Shown piece after piece: positions 3,370-64,000 of a stretch of DNA of 64,000 bases. Origin of the DNA: Okamejei kenojei (Eukaryota). Location of the stretch: positions 25,358,001 through 25,422,000 of the forward strand of contig CM069141.1 in NCBI GenBank assembly GCA_035221665.1, given 5' to 3'. A program made the translations under genes and the position numbers. The stretch's first letter is position 1, and each line of letters begins with the position of its first letter. Under the pieces are notes generated by a model. It searched no databases and had not been told where the DNA came from. It saw only the letters and a list, made by a program, of their open reading frames with translations.

Positions 3370-4465
3370 GGATGAAAAAATCTCAGATCCACATCCTAAG
3401 TCTATGATTTCTAATTATATCTACCACTGATACGCGGAAAAGTTTCCTGCAGACTACCTTTTCTATAATCCCCATCATTTTTATATATCAGTCATGTCTC
3501 TCTTAACCTCCTCTACACCAAGGATAACTAACCTAGCTCCTCCAGTCTCCCAGCATAACTGAAATTCTCCCAGGAAATATCTGCACTCTCTTTAGCACTA
3601 TCAAAACTTTCCGACAGTATGGTAACTGAAACTGCACAGAGTGCTCCAGATGAACTCTGAGCAAGGCTTTAGAATGATGTAGTGTAGCCTCCCCACTCCT
3701 GCATTCAATGTCCAATAATGCAGCCCAGTATCCCATATGTCTTTGTAAGCATGATATCTACCTACACAGTTGCCTTCAACAATGTTGGTTTTGCACACCT
3801 TTTGCACACGAGGTTCCTTAATATTCCCTGGGATTCTACTATTCGCGGTGTCATTAGTACCTTCGGTGAAGATGGTTGCCTAAGACAGTGAAGATGGTTG
3901 CCTACAACAGGATATGGATCAACCTGGATTGTGGTATACCTCAGACAAGTGGTATGCGATGCATTTTGAGAAGTTAAACTAAGGCCCGACATACACAGTG
4001 AATGGCTGGGCCCCAGGGAATGTTATTGAACAGACAGGCCATGGGGTACAAGTACATAATTCCCTGAAAGTAGCAAAGCTGGCAAACAGTATGGCAAAGA
4101 AGGTACATGGTGTGTTTCCCTTCATCACCTGCGGCTTTTTCAGCACAAAAGGTGGGACATCACATTATATTTATACAAATCGTTGGTTAGGCCACACTTG
4201 GTGTATTGTGTGTAGTTCTAGTCACTGCACTACAGGAAAGATGTAATTAAACGAGAGAAGGTAAAAAAGAAAGGATGTTGACTGAATTGGAGGGATTGAG
4301 TAATAAGGAGAGATTTGATAGGTTGGATCTGTTTTCCTTAGAGCAAAGGAGGCTAAGAGATGACGTGATAGAGGTATATAAAATGTTGAGAATCCTAATG
4401 TAGACAGCCTGAGTCTGTTTCGCATGGTCCGGGTGTCTAAAACTAGAGGGCACAGGTTTAAACTT
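3370..4465. mobile_element. Old CR1 LINE 3' fragments in opposite orientations (minus about 3370-3860, plus about 3890-4465)
   Basis: Degraded ORF2 C-terminus: ALLRVHLEHSVQF on minus; GTTAGGCCACACTTGGTGTATTGTGTG and AAAACTAGAGGGCACAGG on plus. Confidence 0.65.
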
Positions 4466-6599
4466 AGAGACTGAATCTATTTAACCTCATGGTTGCAATA
4501 TAATTATTGTTTTGCCTGTGTGTGCCTGAAAGCCTGAGATGGAAATGGAGAACACTGCATTTATAATTGATATCTTTAGGCAATTGAAGGCACCAATTTT
4601 CTGATGTATTGAAGGCATTATATTCCAATTAATAACCAGGTTGATCCAATCCGAATCACTGTAAGCAAACTGCAGATAACATAAAAAGGAAGCAATATCA
4701 ATTTTGTTGTATATGATTGAAATGTCATTAAAGGTGACCTATTCACTTTCACAACAAATGGAAACTTTTTTCCACAATCATAAAATACTCTCAGTATTTT
4801 TAAAATTCCATTTTATATAATACCACCCACTATTTTTAAAACAGTATGGAATTGAATTAATGATTTGAAACAAATTATGCTTACTTAAAGAAAAATCAAT
4901 TTTGGTGCTTTTCACACCACTCACACAGAAAAAATTCATTGAATTTGGCATACATAATTACAGTAAACTAAAGCAAGTTCTAATTCAACAAAAACAAAAA
5001 CAAAATTATTAAAAATCATTTAACCTTGGTATCACTACGTTTCTAGTTTTCTCTACCTCATTAATCAAATCCTTTATAATTCATATTGCAGACACATATT
5101 GAAGAAAGCAGAATTGAGGTTCAGTTAATAAATCCATGGGCTGCTGGTTTTCAAATATACGGCAGCTTAAATCATTGGTTAACAGTAATAAACCTTGCTT
5201 GTGAGAACAGTAACAAAAGGACTGAAAGCAAAAACAATATGAGAATGTTATTGCTTTGATAAAAGTACATTGCTGATCAATAGGAGTGTAAAAGCTTATA
5301 CCATGTACTATCTAAAGCTACTAATCATCGGGGACTTTTTAATATTTACAATCCTTAACTTTGACTTAAAAAAGATATATTTGTAATTAGCAAATGTCCT
5401 TTATTTCAGATTTCATTTCTTACCTTGTTTTGTTTTCATTCTAGGTATTTAATTTAAAAATAACTCATCAGTTTTTGGCATTGCAATACATTCTCAAATT
5501 GAACCAGCTATTTTACAGAAACACGAACTAAACATTAAGCTCTTTGGAAGAGTGGGAAATAAAAATTACAATCTGCCTATGGAATAGTTGCTCACAAGCA
5601 CCTCCATGAAATAGCCTCTGATATATCTCCACTTAAACTTCTCTGTTCAATCTCTCATCTCCCACACAAGACCGTCATCATTGGAATCATTCTGCTAAGT
5701 CTCATCTACAGTATATCCACTTTAAGACTTAATATCATCAGAAAATAGGTGACTTGCATTGGACACAATACTTCAACTGAGATCAAAATGATGGCTTAAC
5801 ACAGTTTTTGCACTTCAAACCTCTCTTTTTAGGTTTGGGCTAGGTTCAAGTTTATTATTGCCACACGTACCGAGGTAGGATGAAAAGCGCTGTTTTGCAT
5901 GCTATCCAATTAGATTGGGGGGGGGGGGGCATGACGAAACCCAGCACATGCTTATTCCTTTTTCTCTTAATATTCCTAAACTGAAAGGGATTGCTGACAG
6001 CTACTGAGAAAAGGAGGATATTCTGATGAAGTGTAGTTAGAAATATTGTTTGCTTGATATCTAGCTCTGGCATTGTCTAAAACACCTTGATATGGTGCCC
6101 GTTTTCAAATCCTACTAAACATCTTCACCTGCGTGAGGGAGAAATGTGCCTTTTGTCATCCATGCTAAATGCAAACAGCTGAACTCTGCTCCCAATGCTC
6201 AGTTTTACTTAGAACAATAAAATGGTACCACATTAGAACAGGCTCCATGCTGAACATGATGCCAAGTTAAACTAATTTCCTCTGCATGTGATCCATATAC
6301 CTCCATTCCCTGAAGATCCATGTGTCTATCCTACCTAGTCTATGGAACACTAGGGTCCAGCTCTTGCACTACAATGGACTAGATTTATTTTCCTAATAAT
6401 GTTTTGCTCTAATGTCTTGTTTATTATGGCATGATTTTTCATGTTTTTTATCGCAGCATGCCTGGCCCACTGAGTTGCTCCAGCACTTTGTGTTTTCTTT
6501 TTGTAAATCAGCATCTGCAGTTCCTTGTTACCACATATAGTTCTCATCATTGTAGGACATCAGTTCCATAGACAAAGTCCAATGTCTGCAAATAGGTTA

Positions 6600-26991: not shown

Positions 26992-28032
26992 GAAGGGATT
27001 AAAATGCAGGTGAGGTTTATATTCGTTGTGGAGAGGAATTTGCTCCACAGATCCTTGGATCATTGGAAGTGCAGGACAAAGCAAAAGGTATGTAGTTTAT
27101 TTAACCATTTTTCCCCGCTGAACCTCGCATCCGCAGTGGGGGCCTATCCATCTCGCATCCGCACCTGTCTGAGCCACCAGGCCTGAAGCATCCACGCTGC
27201 TAACTCCCACTCCCCTGGGTTTGACGGCACTGGGTCCTAGTGCCAATCCCAAACCCTGGTAACTTCAGCGGCTGTTCCACTAGGTCTTCCCCATCCCCCT
27301 CAAACTTTGTGACCCCTGCTCTTCCCCATCCACACTACAGTCCTCTCACCCCCGACCACCCACTACCCCCCCCCCCCCCCCCCCCCACCACCAGACATTG
27401 CCTCGGCCTCAATTCACTCACCTGCCTTCCTCGGGCCCCAACACCCATTCCTGCCATGTGTTCATCATCCCCCGTTGATCTCCCCCCTCCGACACCGAAC
27501 GGTCTGTCCTCAGCAGAGGTCTTACCTTTGTCCCCCTCCGTCCCCACCTCAATGAGTTCCGCGCCCACCACGACTTGGAGCTCTTCTACCGTCGCCTCCG
27601 CCTCACAGCGTTCTTCCATGGGCAAGAGTCCTCTCCCACTATTGATGATCCCTTTTCCCATCTCCAACGAACCGCCTCCTCGTGGTCCCCCCTCATGGCA
27701 TCCGGCTTTAGACCTTTTTATCCAAAACTGCCGGCGGGACATCAACTGCCTCAACTTCTCCACTCCCCTGTCTCACTTCAATCTCTCCCCGAACGTACAG
27801 CCATCAACTCACCCCGCAACAACCCAGACTGGGTGATCAAACCCGCCGACAAGGGAGGTGCCGTAGTAGTTTGGCACGCTGATCTCTACAAAGCTGAGGC
27901 CACCTGCCAACTCACGGACACCTCCTCCTACTTACCCCTGGACCATGACCCCACTGACGAGCACCAGGCCACTGTAGAGAAGGTACACAGACACCTTAAG
28001 GTCTTCACTACTTTATTAATCATACATCATAT

Positions 28033-28747
28033 GCACACGGCAGCTGACGCTTCGCTACAACAGCTGGCCGCGGTCATCAAGCATGGCTGGCCACAACGCC
28101 GTTCTTCCCTGCCGGCCGCAGCGGTGCCTTATTTCTTGGTTCGTGACGAGTTGGTGCTGCGTGATGGTGTGATTGTGAAGGGGCACAAGGTCGTGGCGCC
28201 CCCTGCACTACGAGAACAATATTTCGAAACCGCTCATCGTGGCCATCCCGGGGCCGAAGCGACCCTTTCCATCGCTCAGAGCCAGTTCTTCTGGCCTGAC
28301 ATGCCTCGCTACTTCCGGGATAGATTCTCCGCGTGCCCTACCTGCAACAGCCTCGCACTGCAGCAACAGCGGCAGCCGCTCCTGCAGCAGCCAGGTGCTA
28401 ACCTGCCCTGGTCTGCGCTAGCAACCGACATCTTCGAGTGGCACGGAAAACACTTCCTGGTGCTTGTCGACTCTTACTCCAGCTGGTTTGAAGTTGACCA
28501 GCTCCACTCCCTCTCTTCCTCCGTAGTCATCGAGAAGTTGCGCCGCCACTTTGCCACCTTCGGGTCCCCGGCCAGCCTGCAGTCGGACAACGGCAGCCAG
28601 TTCACCAGTGCCGAGTTCCGTGCTTTTGCCGAATGATGGAACTTTTGTCATTACACCAGCAGCCCGGAATACCCGCAGAGCAACGGACTGGCCGAGCGCT
28701 CGGTCCGCAGTGCTAAAGGATTGTTGGAACGTTGCCGCCTATCCCAC
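28033..28747 (+). pseudogene. Second copy of the Gypsy integrase segment
   Basis: Near-identical to about 30581-31293. Confidence 0.9.
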
Positions 28748-29049
28748 TTCTGACACCATGTAGAGAAGGTACACAGACACCTTAAGGTCTTCAATACTGT
28801 ATTAATCATACATCATATAGCCCTTTGCTGTACATGGTCTGTCACGATCACCAGAGAGAGAGCTAAGGGCGTGTGGGTTACAATTATACTAACTGGTGGG
28901 GGAGTGGTTAGCATGGACATCGTCACTATCAATTAAAAGTGTATACACATATCATCTACATCCTTCCTCTACCAAAACAAACAGTGAGTGACAGGGCGAC
29001 CACGTCTCATGCGCTAGGGTAAATGCAAACAGTAAAGCACGGGAATACA

Positions 29050-29758
29050 GAATCACACATAATCGCCGTAACGGACCGGCGACCTGACCAGGCTACCAGA
29101 CCGGGTCCGCACCTCGCGATCACCTCCTTCCTCGACGGGAACAAGCAGGGACGACGCTGGGGCATGGCGGGGGCTATGGACAGGAGAACTTCTGGGCGAC
29201 GAAGGCATCGGGGGGTGGGGCGGCGAAGAGAAGGGCGAGGAAGCCGGAGAAAGCGGGACCGCAGTCAGGAGGCGGACAGGAGAAGGACGAGGGGGGGGGG
29301 GGTGACCCCAGAGGAACGGGCAAAGCACTGGGCTGCGATAGTGGCAGCAGGAGGGGGTGGGGCATACGGAGCCGCCGGGGGAGGGAGAGGATCGTTCACG
29401 AGCCGGAGATGCTGGCGGGACCGGCGGTGGTTGACAAGGTACGAACGAGGGGAACCAGCAGAACCGACGACCACGGCCAGCTTGGAGCGGCCAGACGTGG
29501 ACCTCGTACGGACAACCTGGCCGGGGAGAAGAGGGCGGAGGACACGGCAGGACCTGTCATGGGAACGCTTCTGTATACCGTGTTTTTGGGCAATGAGTTT
29601 CCGGACCAAGGCAGGTTTAAAGACAGAGGGGGACAAGGACTGTTGTGACACTGGGACCGTGGGTCTCGTGACTCGGGACATGAGGCGCTGAGCCGGGGAG
29701 CCCAGGACATGGTCGCGGGAGATGTTGCGGAGGTTCAGCAGGGCAAGGTAAATGTCGG
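29050..29758 (-). pseudogene. Gypsy integrase C-terminal part, sense with respect to the LTRs
   Basis: DIYLALLNLRN..GSPAQRLMSR..LRPLLPGQVVR..PRSYLV..RRSRQHL and the terminal RTRSGSLVRSPVRYGDYV. Confidence 0.85.
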
Positions 29759-31293
29759 GCCCGGGAGGTCAACCTGAAGCTCAACCCGAAGAAGTGCTGA
29801 TTCCGGGTCCCTGAGGTCACCTACATGGGGCATGTCTTCACAGCATCGGGGCTGAAGCCCGACCCGCAGAAGACGGCCGCAATATCCGAGATGCCTGCAC
29901 CTGCGGACGTGCCTGGCCTACAGCGCTTCTTGGGCATGGTCAACTACCTGGGAAGGTTCATCCCTGACCTGAGCGAACTGAGTGCCCCTCTGCGGGATCT
30001 GGTGAAAAAGGACACTGCCTGGGCCCGGTTCCCGCAACACCAGCGAGCATTTGACACCCTCAAATCTAAGCTGATCAGAATGCCAACGCTGAAGCACTTT
30101 GACCTCCAGCGTCCCATCGTTCTCACATGTGATGCATCTAAGTTTGGCCTCGGAGCTGCCTGCCTGCAGATCCATGACGGGGTGCAACTGCCTGTGTCCT
30201 ACGCATCCCGCACAATGACAACCGCTGAACAACACTATGCCCAGATTGAAAAGGAGCTGCTGGCTGTTGTCTTTGCCTGCTCTAAATTCAAGGACTATAT
30301 CCTGGGCACCTGCTTCACTGTCGAGACGGACCACCAGCCTCTGGTCACCATCCTCAACAAGCCGATTACACATGGCCTCCTCCTGGCTCCAGCGCATGAT
30401 GCTCCAGCTACAACGCTTCACTTTCACAGTGGTTTATCGCAAGGGCAAGGACATGTTTGTTGCTGACACGCTGTCTCGGGCGCCTCTCTCATCCACAACC
30501 TGACATCCGTACGAGGCGTCCAATCTGATAGTCCTAAATGTCAATTTTGTGCCCTCCAGTCAGTTGAAGTCCCTGGCCAAGCACACGGCGGCTGATGCTT
30601 CGCTACAACAGCTGGCCGCGGTCATCAAGCATGGCTGGCCACAACGCCATTCTTCCCTGCTGGCCGCAGCGGTGCCTTATTTCTTGGTTCGTGACGAGTT
30701 GGTGCTGCGTGATGGTGTGATTGTGAAGGGGCACAAGGTGGTGGTGCCCCCTGCACTACGAGAACAATACTTCGAAACCGCTCATCGTGGCCATCCCGGG
30801 GCCGAAGCGACCCTTTCCATCGCTCAGAGCCAGTTTTTCTGGCCTGACATGCCTCGCTACTTCCGGGATAGATTCTCCGCGTGCCCTACCTGCAACAGCG
30901 GTCGCACTGCAGCAACAGCGGCAGCCGCTCCTACAGCAGCCAGCTGCTAACCTGCCCTGGTCTGCGCTAGCAACCGACATCTTCGAGTGGCACGGAAAGC
31001 ACTTCCTGGTGCTTGTGGACTCTTACTCCAGCTGGTTTGAAGTTACCAGCTCCAATCCCTCTCTTCCTCCGTGGTCATCGAGGAGTTGCGCCGCCACTTT
31101 GCCACCTTCGGGTCCCCGCCAGCCTGCAGTCGGACAACGGCAGCCAGTTCACCAGTGCCGAGTTCCGTCTTTTGTCGAACAATGGAACTTTCGTCATTAC
31201 ACCAGCAGCCCGGAATACCCGCAGAGCAACGGACTGGCCGAGCGCGCGGTCCGCAGTGCTAAAGGATTGTTGGAACGTTGCCGCCTATCCCAC
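29756..31293 (+). pseudogene. Gypsy pol fragment (RT C-terminus, RNase H, integrase), antisense to its LTRs
   Basis: NLKLNPKKC, LQRFLGMVNYL, CDASKFGLGA, YAQIEKELLA, ETDHQPL, ADTLSR, HRGHPG..CPTC, LVDSYS, SDNGSQF, PQSNGLAERAV, with frameshifts and stops. Confidence 0.92.
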
Positions 31294-34200
31294 TTCTGAC
31301 ACCATGTAGAGAAGGTACACAGACACCTTAAGGTCTTCACTACTTTATTAATCATACATCATATAGCCCTTAGCTGTACATGGTCTGTCACAATCACCAG
31401 AGAGAGAGCTAAGGGCGTGTGGGTTACAATTATACTAACTGGTGGGGGAGTGGTTAGCATGGACATCGTCACTATCAATTAAAGGTGTACACACATATCA
31501 TCTACAGCCACTATCTCTAGCACCATCACCGACTTCATCAACTCCGGCTCCCTGCCCTTCCTCGAGCTTCCAGCCTCATCGTTCTCCAGCCCCGTACAGC
31601 CCGATTTTACCTTCTCCCCAAAATCCACAAACCTGACTGCCCTGGTAGACCCATTGTCTCTACCTATTCATGCCCTACCAAACTCATTTCCCATACCTTG
31701 ACCATCCAACGCCCCTGGTTAAATCCCTCCCTACCTATGTTCAAGGCACCTCAAACACTCTCCGTCGTCTCCGGGCATTCAATTCTCTAGGCCCCCATCC
31801 CTTCATCTTCACCATGGATGTCCAGTCACTCTACACCTCCATCCTCCACCAGGATGGTCTCAAAGTCCTCCGGTTCTTCCTCGACCGGAGAATCAACCTA
31901 TCCCCATCCACTGGTACTATCATCCGCTTAGCGAAGTTGGTCCTTACCCTCAATAACTTCTCGTTTGACTCCTCCCATTTCCTCCAAATACAAGCTGTAG
32001 CTATGGGCACGCGCATGGGCCCCAGCTATGCCTGCCTCTTTGTCGGTACGTCGAACAATCTTTATTCGAGGCGTACCAGGGCCCCATCCCTGACCTCTAC
32101 CTCCATTACATCGACGATTTCTTTGGTGCTACCTCCTGCACCCACACACATCCGCTTCACTATGATCAGCCATGATCATATTGAATGGCGGTGCAGGCTC
32201 GAAGGGCTGAATGGCCTACTCCTGCACCTAATTTCATCTGCTTCACCATTAACTTCCATCAGGCACTCAAATACACCTGGACCATTTCCGACACTTCCCT
32301 ACCATTTCTTGACCTCACTATCTCCATCGCCGGTGATAGACTTCTGACCGACATCCACTATAAACCCACTGACTCCCATGGTTATCTAGACTACTCTTCT
32401 TCCCACCCTGCTTCCAGTAAGGACTCCATCCCCTACTCCCAATTCTTCCGTCTACACCGCATCTGCTCCCAGGATGAGGTGTTTCACACCAGGGCATCGG
32501 AAATATCCTCCTTCTTCAGGGAACGGGGGTTCCCCTCCCCCACTATAGATGAGGCTCTCACCAGGGTCTCTTCCATATCCCGTAACACTGCTCTCTCTCC
32601 CCATCCCCCCACTCGCAACAAGGGCAGAGTCCCCCTAGTCCTCATCTTTCATCCCACTAGCCGTCACATACAACAAATAGTTGTGCGTCATTTTCGCCAA
32701 CTCCAACGTGACCCCACCACTAGCCGCGTCTTCCCATCTCTCCCCCCCCCCCCCCCCCCACCCCCTTGGTCTGCTTTTCGCAAAGATCGCTCCCTCTGCA
32801 ACCCGCTGGTCAATTCTTCCCTTCCCTCCCGCACCACCCGAAGTCTACAGGCTGAGCAGGGCAGAGATTCACGCTGGTGGCCCTCGGCAAAGGGATCCCA
32901 GGGCTCCATGATGTTCAAATCAGCGCAGCCGGAGGCTGGGAGCTCCACAAACCACAGCTCCATGATGTAGAAGCAGCAGGCCCAACACTCCAGAGCTTCA
33001 AACGGCGATCCAGGTAAGGCATCGCTCGCTCTGCGGTGAATCCAATATGTATTTTAAAACCAACTGTTTAATGACAACATACAGTAGGATCTAACAGTGT
33101 CACACTGTCACTGTCGGGTAGTCATGGTCCTCTAGTCATAGGGGGTGGGGGATTGGGAGGGGGGGCCTCACAAGTGAAATAGCTTAGCGCCTCTCTTAAT
33201 CTAAATCCGGCCCTGCTTCCTACACATGTTAATTCCTTGTTTGTTTGCTGAATAATTTCAACAATTTTGGTGGTAAGAAGCTGAATCTACAATAAACAAT
33301 TTTGCAAAGTTCATAAATATTATATTCATTGTGCAGTTGACACAGTTAGCAAAGTGACTTTTGGCCATGCCATAGTCTACCTCTTCCCTACTGAAATCGT
33401 GTCAAGCTTGGGTTTGTGCTGCATCAAACAACTTTGTCTCTTCGCTGTCAGCTTTCGCAACTCACAGAGATATCGAGAAAGAATGTTCACGTTAAATTTT
33501 GAACCATTAAAAGGTGCTGTGTGCACTCCACACTGTAGGAAGAAGTACACAGTTTCTGAGCTTTTCATTGTTGGCAATTAGATTCTCAAAGCGAATGCAC
33601 TGGAAGAGTTCCAATTTACCAATGATAAATTTGGCACCAGCTCAATCAGTTAAATAAGTTGAAGGTTATAAAGCAATCTATCTCGTCCAAGTCACATGTC
33701 ACTCAGAGCTGCCATTAACCCCACATCTGAACCTGCTGAAACATTTTAGTGTCTGTGCAATTCCATCATCATGGATGACATGATTAACCGTGACATTAAT
33801 GGACACATCAAACAACTGAATGCATCCTTGGGGCATTTTAACAAGTGAATGTTAGACCAGCAAGGCATAAAATGGAGTGGAGTTTTAAACTACATCAAGC
33901 AGAAATCTTGCTAAATGTATCTTTAACTATTTTTACCCTGGTTGTGATGGCAGGTCACGAACCTGACACATCAACTCTATTCCTCTTTCCACAGACGCTG
34001 TCCAATTTTCAGAATATCTCCAACATCTCCATCCATTATTTATCGTGTGGCTGAAAATCTTTAATCTGTTACCAAGAAATATGCTAAAAAGAATGAGCTG
34101 ACCAGTTCCATCTGCTGTTTTGGACATCAAATGGTGAGAGAAAATACTGAAATGAGAACAGGGACAAATGCTTCAAATATTAATGGATGGTGGTAAAAGC

Positions 34201-35985: not shown

Positions 35986-37265
35986 GACATATATGTGCTG
36001 GACCTTGGATAGATCATCTGAGATGTTGACGCCCAGGAATTTGAAACTGCTAACTTTCTCTACCACCAATGCAAACTGGTGCATGATCTCCTAACTTTCT
36101 AAATTCAATAATTAGGTTGAGGAGGTGGCCACACTGGCCAGGTTTCTATCTCTTTCTTGTACACTGACTTATCACCACAAATGATGGGGTCAACCACAGT
36201 GGTGTTGTCAGCCTATTTGTCGGTAGTATTTGTTAACAATACACTTACTTGTGTGAAATTCCACATAACAGCATATTACAAGATGCTATTAGATTATATT
36301 ACACAAAATATCACAAAAAAAACAGTGAAATAATGTAGCCTTCATACTGTAACAATCTTACCGTTTTAACTCTGAATCCTATCAGATTCATTCACTTGTA
36401 TTCCCCTTTGACTGTTGTGATGTATGTGATATAATTAGCATATGTTATGTCTTGTGTGAGGGGACGCATGCGCTGGGGGAGACTCAAGGTGGCGTCCTAG
36501 AATAAAGAACCTTGTTAATTTACTCCTGTATCTGAGTGTTCTTTTAAGTCAGTTCCAAGCACTCAAATACACTACAATGGGCAACGAGGGTGGGATGTAG
36601 TTTGTGAACTCACCCGCAGGACTGTTTTGCAACATGCAGGATTGTTTAACAGTTTAAATAGGAAATATGGAGTTGTGTCGCAGCTGGACATGAGAGGCCT
36701 GCAGATCCCTCTAAGCTTGATCGCTCTGCAAGCTGCATACCATGGTTACCGATCAAGGGTACACTACAGAGCTATGGGACAAGCAGTCATTTCGATCCAG
36801 ATGGGACTGTAGTTTAAAACATCAGCTGTACAAGTCAGCAAGTTTGTCAGGCTATCTCTATGTTGTGTCTACGTGGCAAGATGTCGTCCTTCGGATTGTT
36901 ACACATTTTAGGCTGAGTTTTTTTTGTCGAATTCCTCAAGCTGAATAATCATTCTACAGCTATGTTTTAGGTGAATTGTTACACGAAAACACACAACAAG
37001 GATAACGAGGCAATGAGGATAAAAGAACAGAAAAGAACAAAGAAGAAGGGCTGTCAAGAGAAAAAAAAAGTTAAAAAGAAGAGGTTGTGTTTGGAAACAA
37101 AGTGGAACGGCACTAAGCAAAAGGATTTGGCGCCAAATAGTTTTGAATTGGCGCCAAAGAAAAGAAAGGTCGGAACCAGAAACAAGGAAAACAAGTGGGG
37201 CAGTAAGTAGGTGACACCGAAGGACGCAGCCGAAAGCTGGAAGCCTAACCAGCAGGACAGCGACG

Positions 37266-37525
37266 GTGTCAACTTACCTGGAATGCTTTCCAGGGCCATG
37301 CAGCCACGGCAAAGGGGCAGAAGAGGCCCAGCAGCCGCCACCGACTTCGGGTGAGATCCAGGGATATCGCTGCAGAGGAAAAGAAGATAGCATGGTTCGT
37401 ATTAGGCTTAGGAAGAGAGGGTTATCAGACCTTACGTATGTTACTGCTGCCAGCAAAGCCCACAGACAAAATGTACGAGGAGTGTAAGGAGGCATTAATG
37501 GCTCATTTCTCGCCAAAACCTCCAA
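37266..37525 (+). pseudogene. Gypsy gag N-terminal remnant
   Basis: STYLECF...EEKKIAWFVLGLGREGYQTLRMLLLPAKPTDKMYEECKEALMAHFSPKP matches the typical G..Y.LLR.L..P.KP.DK.Y.EL...L..HF.PKP gag start. Confidence 0.75.
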
Positions 37526-37689
37526 GGGCATCCAGAGGCAAGAAGCCTGAACTAAAGAGGGTAGGGAGTCCCTCAAAGGACAAAATTCAAGGGCAAAGTG
37601 ACAAAAGTCAAGTGCCAAGTGACAAAGGTCAAGTGGAAAAGGCCAAATGTCAAAGGCAAAGGGACAAAAGTCAAATGCAAAGGGACATT

Positions 37690-38745
37690 GCCATCCAGTG
37701 GGCAACCCTAACTATTCAAGCTGCATTCAGGGGTATGAAGGTACAGAAAGAGATCTGGAACAAACAGAAGGCAGCAACGATAATACAAACAACATTTAGA
37801 AGGCACAGAGTATACCATCCATACAGGGCAATGAGATTGGCAGCTATAATAGTGCAAACCCATTCTAGGGCACACCTTCAAATGAAAAGTGATTGCAAGA
37901 CTTACATGAAGGTACACAGCAGTGTTGTGCTGATTCAGGCTGCTTACCGAGGAATGGTTGTTCGAAAGCAATTGTGGTGCATGCACAAATCTGCACGTCA
38001 TACAGACTTATTATCAGATGCATAAACAGCGTCAGAATTTCAAGAAACTACGCTGGTCTGCCATTGCTGTACAGCAATGATACAGAGCTTGCCAGATAAG
38101 CGATGTCCAAGTGAGACATTATTATAGTTTGAGAAAAGCAGTGGTTTGTATTCAAGCCTTCTACTGCGGGAGTAAAGCCAGAGAATTGGTTGAGAAAATC
38201 AAGGCAGCACGCCATATTAAGTCAATCTTAATGATGTGCATTAAAAGAAAAAAATTCTTGATGCAAAAGGCAGCTGTTGTCACTCTGCAAGCTGCATACC
38301 ATGGTTACCGATCAAGGGTACACTACAGAGCTATGCGACAAGCAGTCATTTCGATCCAGAGATGGTACAAAGCATGCAAAATAGGGCATTCCCAGTTTGT
38401 GCAATATCAGTCAATGAGGTTTGCAACCATTACCATTCAGGCTGCCTACAAGGGTATGGCAGTTAGGCAGTGGATTAAGCAAAAGAGGGCTACTGTAAAG
38501 GTTCAGTCAGTACTTCGTATGAGTTGGTATAGGAAAGACCTAAGGAGACAAATAGATGCACAACAGAAAAGGCTGAAATGATACAAAAGGCTTAAACGAT
38601 ATAGGAAAGACTTCCTCAAACTGAAATATACAACAGTTGTAGTGCAGTCTCACTACCGTGCTTATGTAGTAAGAAAACTATGCAGAGCACAAATCAAAGC
38701 CACTGTTGTATTGCAAAGACAATATAGATCCTACTTCTTGATGAA
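37690..38745 (+). pseudogene. ASPM: Captured ASPM-like IQ-repeat fragment
   Basis: Tandem IQ motifs IQAAFRGMKV, IQTTFRRH, IQAAYRGMVVRK, IQTYY, IQAFYCG, LQAAYHG, IQRWYKA, IQAAYKGMAVR, VQSHYRAY, LQRQYRSY at ASPM-like spacing, with one frameshift and several stops. Confidence 0.8.
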
Positions 38746-38754
38746 TAACCAGAA

Positions 38755-39272
38755 ATGTGGTTTAAGAAGACAAATAGATGAACAACAGAAAATGGCTTAA
38801 ACGATACAATGAACGGTTAAATAAATGTGTGATGATGAGCAAAAAGCTGTTAATAGAAAAGTTTAAAGAAGAGAGGCTTGTCGGTCGAGACAAAAGTATG
38901 CAGGACCTATTGCGATTAGGACACTTCACTATAGTCCAGCATTGAGCCTCCTTCACTGAGCAATGGACAAATGGTTATGCATTGCAGAATGTTATTATAC
39001 AACAAGAGCAGATAAATACGCAGCGCCAGGAAATTGAGCAACAGAGGGAGCTGCTAGAAAATGATTACCTGCAGTCATGTGTCAGATCCCACCTACAAAT
39101 AAGGAATAGAAACAGAGGAAATGTTAACTATAGCAGAATATCAGGAACAGAAATAAATCTGCAAATTAGATTAGGATATCTAAAAAGGGAAGAGGCAGAG
39201 ATACAGGTAGAACTAGAGTGATTAGAAAGAGTGCGCAATTTACACAGAAGGGAACGGAAAAGGATAACACAT
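38755..39272 (+). pseudogene. TLK2: Captured Tousled-like kinase (TLK2-like) coiled-coil region, intronless
   Basis: [11 protein letters not shown] / [69 protein letters not shown] / MCQIPPTNKE*KQRK / LTIAEYQEQ / RLGYLKREEAEIQVELE*LERVRNLH, collinear with my recollection of vertebrate TLK2. Confidence 0.85.
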
Positions 39273-39357
39273 AAAGCAAGGGTAATGTATGTGGTTTAAG
39301 GAAGATGAGTGGAATGAAAAATTATAAGTGATAAGTTTAGATACGATTATTACAGTT

Positions 39358-40115
39358 ATAGAAACATAGAAACATAGAAATTAGGTGCAGGAGTAGGCCA
39401 TTCAGCCCTTCGAGCCTGCACCGCCATTCAATATGATCATGGCTGATCATCCAACTCAGTATCCCGTACCTGCCTTCTCTCTATACCCTCTGATCCCCCT
39501 TAGCCACAAGGGCCACATCCAACTCACTCTTAAATATAGCCAATGAACTGGCCTCAACTACCCTCTGTGGCAGAGAGTTCCAGAGACTCACCACTCTCTG
39601 TGTGAAAAAAGTCTTTCTCATCTCGGTCTTAAAGGATTTCCCCCTTATCCTTAAGCTGTGACCCCTTGTCCTGGACTTCCCCAACATCGGGAATAATCTT
39701 CCTGCATCTAGCCTGTCCAACCCCTTAAGAATTTTGTAAGTTTCTATAAGATCCCCTCTCAATCTCCTAAATTCCAGAGAGTATAAACCGAGTCTATCCA
39801 GTCTTTCTTCATAAGACAGTCCTGACATCCCAGGAATCAGTCTGGTGAACCTTCCCTGCACTCCCTCTATGGCAATAATGTCCTTCCTCAGATTTGGAGA
39901 CCAAAACTGTATGCAATACTCCAGGTGTGGTCTCACCAAGACCCTGTACAACTGAAGTAGAACCTCCCTGCTCCTGTACTCAAATCCTTTTGCTATGAAA
40001 GCTAACATACCATTCGCTTTTTTCACTGCCTGCTGCACCTGCATGCCTACTTTCAATGACTGGTGTACCATGAACCCAGGTCTCGCTGCATCTCCCCTTT
40101 TCCTAATCGGCCACC
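39358..40115 (-). mobile_element. Young 5'-truncated CR1 LINE inserted in the LTR element
   Basis: Open frame VKKANGMLAFI..VRPHLEYCIQFWSP..RGDLIETYKIL..RVVSLWNSLP, with an (TTTCTATG)n tail. Confidence 0.95.
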
Positions 40116-41124
40116 ATATGTGGATGTAATGTAAGATTACTGTAATAATATAATTTTGCAAGTTAATCAATTATATTTAATGTAAACAAAATGGTGTTAT
40201 CTGCCTCCAAGTTAAAGGGGGAGCAGTGTGGTGTGTATTATATAAATTGTGTTACCTGCCTCCAAGTTAAAGGGGGAGCAGTGTGATGTATGTGATATAA
40301 TTAGCATATGTTATGTCTTGTGCGAGGGGACGTATGCGCTGGGGGAGACTCAAGGTGGCGTCATAGAATAAAGAAGCTTGTTAGTTTACTCCTGTATCTG
40401 AGTGTTCTTTTAAGTCAGTTCCAAGCACCCAAATACACTACAACTGTGAACATAACTCATCTCAGTGACTACAGTACGTGAAGCAGTTTGTTCCATCACG
40501 ACAGCTGATCAATGTAGTCTGCTGGTGGCCAAGGTTTGCAAACAAATATTCCTTTTTAATAAACATAAATTACACCTGTGATAACTGAATGACATCTCTT
40601 CCAACTTCTCTGTTGTCTAACCTGTCCTCACAAATATCTATAAATATGCAATAACAAAAAAAAACTGCTCAGTGGATCAGTTGACATTTGTGGAGGGAAA
40701 TGGATGGACCATGTTTCAGGGCACACTCTTCTTCAGACTCTTATAGATGCTTCCTGACGTGCTGAGTTCCCCCAACACGTGTGCTTTTGCTCAGAATTCC
40801 AGTGTCACTTGTGTCTTTAATTTCCATAAGTTGATTTAATGAGCCTTTGTCATCAATGTTCACAGTTAAAAATTATTTTGAGGAATAAGAACTCTGAGCT
40901 TGACGGTGCATTGATAGGTTCTTATTTTAGTGAACTCTTGCTTGTTGTCATGGAAACTACCACATGAACTCTCTGGAGAAAATAGATAAGTATATTATGC
41001 CCAACAAACAAAGTGCTGGAGGGGCACAGTAGGGCAGACAACATCTGTGGAGGGAAATGGGCAAGCGTCATTTTAGGATGGGACCCTTCTTCAGACTCAG
41101 TTACAAATACAACCTGACATAATA

Positions 41125-54573: not shown

Positions 54574-56199
54574 CAGTGGCTTGCAAAAGTATTCATACCC
54601 CTTGAACGTTTCCACATTTTGTCACGTTAAAACCACAAACGTAAATGTATTTTATTGGGATTTTATGTGATAGACCAACACAAAGTGGCGCATAATTGTG
54701 AAGTGGAAGGAAAATTATACATTGTTTTCATTTTTTTTACAAATAAAAAACTGTAAAGTGTGGAGTGCAAAAGTATTCAGCCCTCTTTACTCTGATACCC
54801 CTAAATAATATCCAGTGCAACCAATTGCCTTCAGAAGTCACCTAATTAGTAAATAGAGTCCACTTGTGCGTAATCTAATCTCAGTATAAATACAGCTGTT
54901 CTGTGAAGGCCTCAGAGGTTTGTTAGAGAACATTAGTGAACAAACAATGTTCCTTGGGCATCATGAAGCCCAAGGAACACACCAGACAGGTCAGGGATAA
55001 AGTTGTGGAGAAGTTTAAAGCAGGGTTAGGTTATAAAAAAATATCCCAAGCTTTGAACATCTCACGGAGCACTGTTCAATCCATCATCCGAAAATGGAAA
55101 GAGTATGGCACAACAGCAAACTTACCAAGACATGGCCGTCCACCTAAATTGACAGGCCGGGCAAGGAGAGCATTGATCAGAGAAGCAGCCAAGAGGCCCA
55201 TGGTAATTCTGGGGAAGCTGTAGAGATCCACAGCTCAGGTGGGAGAATCTGTCCAAAGGACAGCTATTTGTCATGCACTCCACAGATCGAGCCTTTATGG
55301 AAGAGTGGCAAAAAGAAAGCCATTGTTGAAACAAAGCCATAAGAAGTCTCGTTTACAGTTTGCCACAAGCCATGTGGGGGACACAGCAAACATGTGGAGG
55401 AAGGTGCTCTGGTCTGATGAGTCCAAAATGGATGTTTTTGACCTAAATGCAAAACGCTATGTGTGGCGGAAAACTAACACTGCACATCACCCTGAACACA
55501 CCATCCCCACTGTGTAACATGGTGGTGGCAGCATCATGCTGTGGGGATGCTTTTCTTCAGCGGGGACAGGGAAGCTGGTCAGAGTTCTTGGGAAGATGGA
55601 TGGAGCCAAATACTGGGCAATCTTGGAAGAAAACCTGTTAGAGTCTGCAAAAGACGCGAGACTGGGGCAGAGGTTCACCTTCCAGCAGGACAATGACCCT
55701 AAACATACAGCCAGAGCTACAATGGAATGGTTTAGATCAAAGCATATTCACGTGTTAGAATGGCCCAGTCAAAGTCCAGACCTAAATCCAATTGAGAATC
55801 TCTGGCAAGACTCGAAAATTGCTGTTCACAGATGCTCTCCATCCAATCTGACTGAGCTTGAGCTATTTTGCAAAGAACAATGGGCAAAAATGTCAATCTC
55901 TAGATGTGCAAAGCTGGTAGAGACATACCCCAAAAGACTTGCAGCTGTAATTGCAGCGAAAGGTGGTTCTACAAAGTATTGATTCGGGGGGCTGAATACT
56001 TTTGCATGCCACACTTGTCAGTTTTTTATTTGTAATAAAATTTGGAAACCATGTATAATTTTCCTTCCACTTCACAATTATGCACCACTTTGTGTTGGTA
56101 TATCACATAAAATCCAAATAAAATACATTTACGTTTGTGGTTGTAACGTGACAAAATTTGGAAAAGTTCAAGGGGTATGAATAATTTTGCAAGCCACTG
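54574..56199 (+). mobile_element. Full-length Tc1 transposon (IR/DR type, Passport-like)
   Basis: About 210-bp TIRs starting CAGTGGCTTGCAAAA, with inner direct repeat GCAAAAGTATTCA; TA on the right flank and TG on the left. Confidence 0.95.
54963..55982 (+). pseudogene. Tc1 DD34E transposase, 339 codons with two in-frame stops
   Basis: GYKKIS, GRPPK, WSDESK, QQDNDPKH, SPDLNPIENLW. Three ORF-track segments lie in one frame, separated only by TAG (55221) and TAA (55515). Confidence 0.95.
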
Positions 56200-60021: not shown

Positions 60022-61101
60022 ATGGCAACACAGCGCAGACCACCCATGGATAAAACAAAACTCCGGTATGCAAGGAAAACGGCAGAACAAGAACAAGGCC
60101 TGACTGGAGCCTCGGCCTCAGGTAGGACACTATCCCTAGGAGATATGTCGAAAAAAACGAAGAAAAAATCGGAAATTGAAGAACTCAAAGTTTTTTTGTA
60201 CAAGAAATGGCAGAGTTAAAGAAAGAAATAAAGTTGGAATTAAAGACTGAATTGGTAAAAAATGAATATTAAGGAAGAAATAGAAAAAATCAAGGAGGAG
60301 ATGAAGGAGTTAAAGTCTGAAATCAATACCTCGGCCACGGAATTATCTGACAAACTCCGAAAGGAAATTGCAGAAATATTGACGGATCAATCTGCAAATA
60401 TAGTGGAAGAGATGAATGAAAAAATTGAAAATAAGGTGGAAACAGAAATGGAACCCGTGGTGGAGGAAATCAAGGAACAGTCGACAGCCATAAAGAACCT
60501 TGAAAAGCTAGCCGAAACAAGTACTCAGACTGCAAAAACGTTCCTCAAAGAAAATCGACGTTTATCTGACTTACTGGGCAAAATAACTGATAAGTGTACT
60601 GAGTTGGAAGAACGCCAGAGAAGACAGAATCTAAAGATCGTGGGTATTCGAGAAGGGAGAGAAAAGAAACAAGATACCCGAGAGTTTACTGCAAACTTAT
60701 TGCAAAAGGTTTTATCTCTGGAACAAAAGCCTTTACTAGCCCGAGCACACAGAGTAATGAGACGTTATACAAAGCAAGACACCCCTCCAAGACAAATGAT
60801 AGTAAAAGTCCAGTATGATCATGTCCTGGAGGAGATGATGACCAAAATTGTAAAAAGTAGAAATCTTACATATGAAGAAGATTCGATCAGCATTTACCGA
60901 GACTATCCAGCAGAGGTCTCCAAGAAACGAAATGCGTTCAAGGAGACCAAAATAATTTTGATGGAAGTGAAGAATCTGAAGTACAGTCTGAGATACCCAG
61001 CCACCCTGAGAATTACCTACAACCAGGAAGAACATTATTTCAAAAACCCAGCGGATGCAATGAGCTTTGCCCAAGGGATTAAGGAGCGAGGGGTAGACTG
61101 A
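60022..61101 (+). CDS. L1 ORF1p (coiled coil, RRM, CTD); probable frameshift near 60190-60220, last 279 codons open
   Basis: Heptad-rich N-terminal half, ELEERQRRQNLKIVGIREG, RAHR, PRQMIVK, IYRDYPAEV, LRYPATLRI. Confidence 0.8.
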
Positions 61102-61975
61102 ATGAAAGTTTCAAAGATGAACTATACCAACAATTAAATTGTACTTTCAAGATTGGAATGGACTATGGACTTGTTTCATCTAAAGAAGATGGAGAAGGAT
61201 GCGGATGGGAGATTCGGGGAGATACGGATTGGAGACTCTCCTATGGATACTAATAATTAGAATAGTAACACTACTAATATTAATAACTAACACATACTAA
61301 AATTAATACTGTGGTATTATTATTAATTAAAGCTAATAACTACCAATTAATGATTAACAACTAATTATAGCTGATTTACTTAGAATTAAGTAAATAGTAA
61401 ATATAAATACACAAAATATAAACTTTGACTTTATTTATATCCCCTGGTATTTTTTTTCTTTTTCCTATATTTTTCATCCCTTTTTCTTATTTTTTATTAT
61501 TACTTTATTTTTTATATTTTCTTATTATTATAGCTTTTAATAAGTATTAAGTATAGATATTATCATATACTTGACTGATGTATTTTGTACACATCAGAGT
61601 TTAATACTCCCGGTTAAATATATTTATGGAATAACAAATTTAATGAATCGTGGAGATGGATCAGTTAGTAACATCGACTACGGAAGTCCATAGATTGCTA
61701 GCCATGGTAGTATGGCTAACACTAACTACACCAATACTAGATGTAGTTTTTTCTCTCTTTGTGCAGCCTATTAATCTCTTAATCTATCCTTTTTTTAAAT
61801 ATTATTTCTTGTTATTATTATTTTATATTTGAATGGAGTTATAAATTAATGCAAAGGAGGTATATACGTGAGAGATACCCAAGGGTCTTGAAATTCATCT
61901 ATTCGGAGTTCGGGTGTAAAGTCGGGTATGTCGAGCTGAACCATTTGCCCTATTATATATTTCTTTAGATAAAAG

Positions 61976-64000
61976 ATGCAAGACTTACAAACAAATATGG
62001 GGAATGGAGGAATAACATTTTGTAGCTGGAATGTTAAAGGTATTAACGAACCAATTAAGAGACGTAACGTATTAGCACATTTAAAAGCACTTAAAGTAGA
62101 TGTGGTATTCATCCAAGAGACACATCTAAAAAAAGAGGCAGAACATAGATTAAATGCTAAATGGATTGACAAAGTGTATCATTCTTCTTTCACACACAAA
62201 TCTAGAGGTGTAGCAATATTAATTCGTAAAGGCACTTCATTTAAACATCAACAATAACTGATAGTGATGGTAGATATATTATTGTAATAGGAGAATTATA
62301 CACACAAAAAATGATTTTTGTCAATGTATACGGCCCAAATTTTCACAGCCCGCTGTTTTTAAAACATATATATTTAATACTATCCCGGAATTATCACAAC
62401 ACAACCTAATAATTGGAGGAGATTTAAATTGTACACTAGATCCTTATTTGGACAGGTCATCAAAACAACGGAAACTTAAATCACATTCCAGTGATCTAAT
62501 AAATGCATATACAGATACTAGTAATATTAAAGATGTTTGGAGAATGCAAAACCCAGCTGGACGAGAATACTCATTTTACTCACCTGTGCATAAAACTTAT
62601 TCAAGAATAGATTATTTTTTGGTAGATTTAAAACTTATCCCACTCACTTATAATTCCAGATATCATTATATTATAATTTCAGATCATACACCTCTAACTT
62701 TTATGATGAAAATAACTGGTAAAACGTAAAAACAGGGACAATGGAGATTTAACCCACAAATTTTAAAAGACAAAATAACTCAAGAATACATCACAAAACA
62801 GATCAAGATTTTCTTTGAAATAAATGATACGCCAGAAATATCTTCGTCCCTATTATGGGAAACTTTTAAAGCGTATCTTCGGGGAATTATGATATCCTCT
62901 CAAGCATTTTATAATAAAGAGAATCGGAGGGAACAACAGGCATTGGAAAAGGAGATCAAACAATTAGACACAGAAAACGCTGTTAACCCAACCATGATAA
63001 ATCATAATAAAATCTTTGCATTGAGATATAAATTAAATAAAATACAGTCAGACCAAGTTGTAAAACGATCCCAATATACTAAACAAATACAATTTGAATT
63101 AAATTATTTAAATAATTTAAAAAAATTATTGGTTCATCAATTACGAAAATTGGAGGGAGAAAAATTAATCCATAGGATTAAATCAGACAAAGTGGAATTA
63201 TTAGTACAAACTAAAGATATAAATGAGAGATTTTTGCAATATTATAAAAATTTATATTCAGCCAAAACGACAGAAAATCAGATAGGAGTAGAAACATTTT
63301 TTTAAAAATGTAATCTAAAAGGACTGGATTCGGAAAATAGAGAATCACTAAACGCTGAAATAACTACCAAAGAAATCGAAGAAGCTATTAGGTCATTAAA
63401 AAATGGTAAAACTCCAGGACCGGATGGTATTGGATCAGAATTTTATAAAATATTCTATGATATGATAGCTCCACCGTTTGAAGACACTTTATGAACACAT
63501 TTATGCACAACAGAAGTTACCAGAAACATTAAACAAATCTATTATAATGCTCATACCTAAATCAGATAAAAATCTGGATGATCCAGGGTCGTATAGAGCC
63601 ATAGCTCTTTTAAATACTGATCAAAAAATATTAACCAAAATACTAGCACAAAGACTAAATATAATGATTAATAAAGTAATTCATTCAGATCAAACAGGAT
63701 TTATACCAAAATGATACTCCTCAAACAACCTGAGAAGATTATTCAATATTATATACTCGAAAAGAAACATTAATAAAGATTTATCAATTATTTCATTGGA
63801 CGCAGAGAAAGCTTTTGATCAGATTGAATGGTCTTATTTATTTTCGGTTATGGAAACTTTTCAGTTGGGAGAGAAGTTTATAACATGGGTTAAGCTACTA
63901 TATACCAAGCCAACAGCTAGAATATTAATAAATCAAATGTTAACTACTAAATTTAATTTATTCCGAGGCTGTAGACAAGGTTGTCCTCTATGTCCACTAC
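61976..64000 (+). pseudogene. L1 ORF2 (endonuclease plus N-terminal RT), disrupted
   Basis: SWNVKGIN, IQETHL, NVYGPN, GGDLN, YSRIDYF, SDH, WETFKAYLRG, GKTPGPDG, YRAIALLNTDQKI, QTGF, SLDAEKAFD, GCRQGCPL, with stops and frameshifts. Confidence 0.93.

Follow-up and report, generated by a model that had tools for sequence, protein, structure and literature searches.

The element at positions 36411-40447 of a 64,000-nucleotide (nt) stretch of the Okamejei kenojei genome (assembly GCA_035221665.1, contig CM069141.1, positions 25,358,001 to 25,422,000, forward strand; hereafter the window) is a long terminal repeat (LTR) retroelement in which pieces of two host genes, ASPM and TLK2, occupy the place of pol. 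The interpretation that we favor, with a probability of about 65%, is that this element belongs, as a decayed copy, to a non-autonomous Ty3/Gypsy family, that the founder of this family acquired ASPM and spliced TLK2 RNA in exchange for pol by template switching, that the family spread with the help of the enzymes of its gag-pol parent, and that its source copies produced a single gag-ASPM-TLK2 protein whose TLK2 coiled coil was under selection.

Anatomy of the window copy and its host donors

The window copy consists of the following parts (UTR, untranslated region; LINE, long interspersed nuclear element):

36411..36415, plus strand: 5' target-site duplication, ACTGT
36416..36576, plus strand: 5' LTR, TG...CA, 161 bp
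36579..36596, plus strand: primer-binding site (PBS), degraded here; the family form is complementary to tRNA-Ser(GCT)
36597..37363, plus strand: 5' leader, ending at a deletion in the window copy
36721..36801, plus strand: 81-nt duplicate of ASPM cargo 38280-38360, within the leader
37357..37518, plus strand: what is left of the N-terminal part of gag, lacking the first ~30 codons
37519..37584, plus strand: gag piece from just before the zinc knuckles, with an in-frame junction after an internal gag deletion
37574..37687, plus strand: 21-nt tandem repeat at the gag-ASPM joint, its copy number varying among copies
37662..38762, plus strand: IQ repeats captured from the large ASPM exon (its 3' part)
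38540..38611, plus strand: in-frame 72-nt insertion into ASPM, made up of the beginning of the TLK2 piece and a duplicated 12-nt stretch of ASPM, found in most copies
38753..39271, plus strand: spliced TLK2 mRNA captured as five exons, encoding the coiled-coil region (residues ~193-373 of skate TLK2) but not the kinase domain
39272..39359, plus strand: parent-element 3' UTR, first part
39360..40116, minus strand: LINE 3' fragment, a later private insertion
40117..40268, plus strand: remainder of the 3' UTR, in which a 55-nt tandem duplication repeats the region of the polypurine tract (PPT)
40269..40281, plus strand: PPT
40282..40442, plus strand: 3' LTR, 161 bp
40443..40447, plus strand: 3' target-site duplication, ACTGT

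The two LTRs have 6 mismatches over 161 positions and are flanked by ACTGT on either side, and a domain scan of 8 internal open reading frames (ORFs) of the window copy detects no LTR-type protease, reverse transcriptase (RT) or integrase, in agreement with the pol-less interior described in the initial annotation of this DNA. The same annotation credited the element with complete cis signals, which holds for the LTR pair, the PPT and the target duplication but not for the PBS, which is degraded in this copy; in sister copies, the PBS is the complement of the tRNA-Ser(GCT) 3' end (15 genomic matches, of which all three checked are tRNA genes). The reported run of a gag N-terminus into IQ repeats is indeed in frame (ORF 37249-38022; Pfam IQ, E=4e-14), but the true N-terminus of gag is not part of it: relative to the sister copies that span this site, typically 1.0-1.5 kb is missing at 37357-37363, the gag start codon included. 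The ASPM frame is disrupted near 37993 and by stops. The LINE fragment at 39360-40116, presumably CR1-like, is not found at that site in spanning sister copies, and the 81-nt leader duplicate is private to the window copy (1 of 100 copies checked).

In the 2.76-Gb genome, a protein search locates the host ASPM exon on C10 through an open frame of 1988 codons. Window positions 37662-38539 match the last internal repeat and the adjoining unique part of this exon with 88% identity over 880 nt, and positions 38600-38762 match it with 91% identity. The ASPM cargo (~1.05 kb) lies entirely within one exon and is therefore uninformative as to an RNA or DNA origin. The next 520 nt of the cargo correspond to five consecutive host TLK2 exons (C31) with 84-90% identity; these exons are joined without introns, so that the TLK2 piece derives from mRNA and its capture at the DNA level is excluded. 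TLK1 (C7), which matches this part of the cargo at only 74-78%, is excluded as the donor. The corresponding segment of the sister copy L048 matches human TLK2 in the PDB entry 5O0Y (E=3.5e-46), and the named best protein matches listed for it are TLK2 or tousled-type kinases; the host TLK2 exons share 88-100% protein identity with Amblyraja TLK2. The host exons, and for TLK2 also the protein matches, bear out ASPM and TLK2, the donors originally proposed. The captured TLK2 piece begins inside the first coiled coil and is devoid of the LC8 motif.

Short similarity between the partners is present at all three joints, namely ~8-10 nt at gag/ASPM, 4 nt exact (8/9 similar) at ASPM/TLK2, and ~9 nt at TLK2/3' UTR, these being the lengths as observed. 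The host ASPM exon itself (locus L076; G000:C10:14496386-14500499, minus strand) contains four internal repeats of 657 nt that are nearly the same (88-96% over 520 nt compared) and represent a tandem expansion of IQ blocks.

The cargo family, its gag-pol parent and a second skate

A pattern spanning the ASPM/TLK2 joint has 168 matches in the genome, to be read as a lower bound on the number of copies, and a control pattern has 0. Given that 56 of the 66 copies in hand, a sample biased to good matches, contain the pattern, about 200 copies are implied. An LTR search yields 537 genome-wide candidates (40 scored, all 95-100%), and a search with the ASPM cargo yields 300, of which 40 were scored; all 40 span nearly the whole kilobase, the 39 outside the window at 88-95%. 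Nine of 19 automated end calls show perfect and distinct 5-bp target duplications, the other ten being mis-called or mismatched. With cis signals retained, pol absent, and many dispersed insertions that have their own target duplications, these copies form a non-autonomous LTR element family. The expectation that other copies may exist is thus borne out by the joint matches and the distinct duplications, and a misassembly, named at the outset as an outcome under which the chimera would fall, is excluded by the joint matches on many chromosomes together with run contigs covering all 30 bins.

Within cargo copies, the two LTRs diverge by 1.2-12%. A tree of four host ASPM repeats and 68 copies of 700 or more aligned nt, its inner support being rough, is ladder- and star-like and places the host repeats as one clade outside all copies (100/100). 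The terminal branch of the window copy is 0.028 compared with a distance of 11-12% to the host sequence, which indicates, as the initial annotation had surmised, that the capture is older than the window insertion. Repeated re-capture or conversion from the host is not supported, only 2 of 30 shared alleles matching other ASPM repeats. The TLK2 variants mostly track subfamilies, and basal copies carry host-like states. Over 99 loci, both ASPM and TLK2 are present in 65, ASPM alone in 15 (all of these incomplete or interrupted within the stretch read), and TLK2 alone in 0.

Some loci are rearranged. In L110, L127, L142, L071 and L072, the last ASPM block and the TLK2 start (~222 nt) are tandemly repeated. 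In the twin rearranged copies L136:922-3011 and L139 (C35), part of a TLK2 exon precedes a partial LTR, after which gag with knuckles follows and stops short at the ASPM start, beside an inverted 3' end.

Cargo-free gag-bearing loci (L102, L137, L138, L143-L145 and others) contain gag and pol in full and share the leader, LTR, PBS, gag start and 3' UTR with the cargo copies; a pol-bearing relative with the same LTR and PBS, of the kind that was to be searched for, accordingly exists in this genome. In L102, RVT_1 at 3528-4304 precedes Integrase_H2C2 and rve at 4985-5872, and L145 has paired LTRs, the PBS of the cargo copies and a 5-bp target duplication. The parent family has no env, the end of pol lying ~250 nt from the 3' LTR (L138, L145), and its gag gives a weak match to Retrotrans_gag (E=0.002). 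The parent is a Ty3/Gypsy LTR retrotransposon; its gag start and tRNA-Ser PBS resemble those of the Mag clade, to which it may belong. An RT search, in which 147 of 29,108 candidates were scored so that the count is a lower bound, detects at least ~30 parent-family loci with 66-85% identity and open frames of at most 552 codons; the cargo copies outnumber the parent loci found.

Parent and cargo copies are connected by a structural series. In L100 and L129, which are basal, gag has undergone an in-frame internal deletion, still contains the zinc knuckles and meets ASPM at a shared Gln-Gln; in later cargo copies, as in the window copy, the knuckles are gone and the 21-nt repeat at the gag/ASPM joint is expanded. 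All cargo copies seen trace to one ASPM capture and have a single common ASPM/TLK2 joint, and no other captured cargo was recognized in 49 further gag-bearing loci that were mapped. The description of the element as a gene-capturing vehicle that joined two host genes is therefore apt for the joining of the two genes but overstated with respect to the vehicle.

Both joints are present in a second skate, Leucoraja erinacea, where P0121 (gag-linker-IQ, annotated as an ASPM homolog) carries the gag/ASPM joint and P0122 (IQ-TLK2, annotated as TLK2 partial) carries the ASPM/TLK2 joint. Element copies are accordingly misannotated as ASPM and TLK2 in this species and can inflate gene-family counts and RNA-seq values of both genes in skates. 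Transcription was assessed with a polyA RNA run (X11, ~6% read), from an organism (E) that may not be O. kenojei, mapped on L048. Of the 755 reads on this copy, 2 align at >=99%, 97 at 95-99%, 360 at 90-95% and 296 lower; the cargo bins can also receive reads from host TLK2 and ASPM. At the 3' end, one mate orientation reaches a depth of 44-50 and the opposite one 1-2, and 41 reads span TLK2 into the element 3' UTR. With the library orientation assumed, the strand bias would be consistent with sense transcription from some members of the family in organism E.

Reading frame, selection and competing explanations

The ASPM/TLK2 spacing is in frame in 58 of the 59 copies with both anchors (66 examined), and at the gag/ASPM joint 31 of 57 copies are in frame, the other phases accounting for 15 and 11. 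Across 81 copies, the ASPM part (1050 nt) contains 253 private indels, 55 of them in frame, and only two frameshifts shared between copies (5 and 3 copies). Shared indels that are not multiples of three number 8 in the 266-nt leader reference and 6 in the 255-nt UTR reference, a few being private to the reference. The rarity of shared frameshifts in the ASPM part compared with the leader and UTR counts in favor of the interpretation given at the outset. A 1135-amino-acid open frame on C24 is a simple repeat.

Substitutions found in more than 5 but less than 80% of the copies were taken as marks of source lineages, with singletons as the comparison set; only natural copies were used in codon counts, from which two segmental twins and two cargo-less loci were left out. 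In the host frame, with all CpG-capable sites removed, the ratio of nonsynonymous to synonymous changes (N:S) is 37:23 for shared substitutions vs 439:99 for singletons (p=6e-4); the corresponding comparisons in the two shifted frames yield p=0.74 and 0.59, and a Cochran-Mantel-Haenszel test stratified by transition/transversion gives p=0.027. In TLK2 nt 15-300, the shared N:S is 4:10 vs 105:22 for singletons (p=5e-5), and the TLK2 subfamily changes that lead to the youngest clade comprise 7 synonymous ones and 0 that alter a residue. A stricter CpG filter weakened the signal but did not remove it, so that a CpG artefact is rejected as the full cause. As judged from these substitution patterns, the captured TLK2 piece has likely been under selection at the protein level.

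The favored scenario can be outlined as follows. Host mRNAs would have been co-packaged into particles of the parent in the germline, and the RT would have jumped from gag RNA to ASPM, to TLK2 and to the 3' end of the element, in one or two rounds. The switch product, with all cis signals, would have been copied in trans by the helper enzymes of the parent. Source copies would translate a single fusion of roughly 700 codons, in which the TLK2 coiled coil, in its most likely though putative role, would pair with itself or with host TLK and thereby raise the copying success of the source copies.

Several observations weigh against this scenario. The selection signal comes from 14 TLK2 variants, in a partition picked post hoc; ASPM alone is not significant (33:13 vs 334:77, p=0.17), the gag N-terminal region shows no constraint (shared N5:S1), and the near-fixed differences of TLK2 from the host are rich in amino acid changes (N8:S3). 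Two shared frameshifts occur in the gag start region (4 and 6 of 73 copies), beyond TLK2 nt 307 most copies have shared frameshifts, and a stop near the end is common to 34 of 48; none of the 36 copies with a recognizable gag start is open past 305 codons. The known parent copies look old and decayed (RT 66-85% identical to the query; one LTR pair ~9% apart) and there is no young one among the 147 scored RT candidates, so that the helper of the youngest cargo copies was not found. The transcripts, in addition, may stem from a different organism, the reads being mostly 86-95% alike.

A bolder version of the coiled-coil role is that the kinase-less TLK2 segment acts as a decoy, pairing with host TLK1/2, lowering TLK activity and loosening germline heterochromatin at repeats, which could explain why a pol-less derivative outgrew its parent. 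This idea derives from the selection signal in the same segment taken together with the reports that CC1 mediates TLK pairing in human TLK2 (PMC6023931; PMC11879137) and that loss of TLK leads to higher repeat and endogenous retrovirus transcription in human cells (PMC7408502); by this analogy, we regard the decoy as conceivable but unlikely. If it proved true, the element would encode a vertebrate retrotransposon anti-silencing factor made from two stolen host genes.

The cargo might instead be a neutral passenger that fills a tolerable length between intact cis signals and is kept open at most against nonsense-mediated decay. Such a passenger would account for the absence of constraint in gag and its weakness in ASPM, as well as for the commonest indel sets in the TLK2 tail, which sum to multiples of three (-30, -24, -3, +3) and keep the frame but not the residues; furthermore, non-autonomous LTR retrocopies are known to re-duplicate (PMC5131818). 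It fits poorly, however, with a synonymous excess that appears in the host frame only, is robust to the CpG and transition/transversion controls, and extends to the exclusively synonymous TLK2 changes on the line to the youngest clade, and we consider it unlikely, albeit a serious contender. The purifying selection on shared changes would be explained equally well by a chimeric gene kept by the host at one or a few loci, as with maize Bs1, with the dispersed copies being its retrocopies and selection acting for the skate rather than the element. The shape of the tree and the domination of one RNA run by reads with one copy-specific deletion are compatible with this possibility, but several structurally distinct subfamilies spread at different times and no long open copy exists among the 36 examined, a minority of all copies, which makes a host gene improbable. 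ASPM and TLK2 are both essential in dividing cells, and the cargo could in principle serve as RNA camouflage, in that small RNAs against it would also strike the essential mRNAs of the donors, weakening silencing. An idea of this kind has been described for maize elements (PMC13317346). Camouflage would predict nucleotide likeness to the host rather than a synonymous excess, whereas the copies are 9-14% off the host and show no sign of re-capture, so that this explanation appears highly improbable.

The window also contains other elements. Positions 27479-31299 hold the remains of another Gypsy-type element with RNase H and integrase pieces, the integrase stretch occurring twice (~28000-28636 and 30504-31299). 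A DDE_3 transposase fragment, which we take to be Tc1-like, is located at 55518-55982, and a LINE with an ORF1-like frame followed by endonuclease pieces, presumably L1-like, at 60259-63305.

Comparison with known systems

Avian E26 (gag-myb-ets) is a defective, helper-dependent transducing retrovirus in which gag is fused in frame to two host genes that replace pol. The skate element resembles it in the exchange of pol for two host genes behind gag and in its presumed helper dependence; E26 is an infectious retrovirus, whereas the skate element is an env-less, germline-inherited Ty3/Gypsy derivative.

Capture by template switching is already described in animals (PMC5131818) and for maize Bs1; what is new here is the scale, the persistence across skates and the selection signal. 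Literature searches directed at skates or chondrichthyans, which covered neither subscription journals nor Repbase, listed no description of a gag-ASPM-TLK2 family. In the animal LTR-mediated retrocopies described by Tan et al. 2016 (PMC5131818), partial mRNAs replace internal ORFs between LTRs, short similarity is seen where the template switches, more than one parental gene can contribute and secondary duplication occurs; correspondingly, the host-derived TLK2 part is intronless here, the internal ORF is replaced and the joints have short similarity. In-frame sense transcription is a further trait of those retrocopies; for the skate family, it is the strand-biased polyA reads from organism E that bear on this trait. 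The re-duplicated cases given in that study occupy few sites (18 sites for nine fly retrocopies, although its tables may hold higher-copy ones), compared with at least 168 copies here, and the skate family differs also in its several subfamilies, its presence in two skate assemblies and the selection signal in its cargo. Maize Bs1, as described in PMC5131818 and PMC13317346, is likewise an LTR element with several host-gene pieces in a chimeric ORF and switch points common to all copies, but its copies number 1-5 and it is interpreted as a gene of the host, whereas the skate family is vertebrate and high-copy. CopiaMBD (PMC6673714) is similar in being a retrotransposon family with a retained chromatin-related domain taken from its host; it adds one domain with a tested function, whereas the skate element is pol-less, draws on two donors and has a putative function. 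The known animal LTR gene captures are mostly young and low-copy; in skates, a capture of two genes gave rise to a lasting family of ~170-200 copies, with the parent, the intermediates and the donors all readable within one genome. Because changes from the copying era are separable from post-insertion decay, this family allows a direct test of whether captured host domains aid the spread of retrotransposons.

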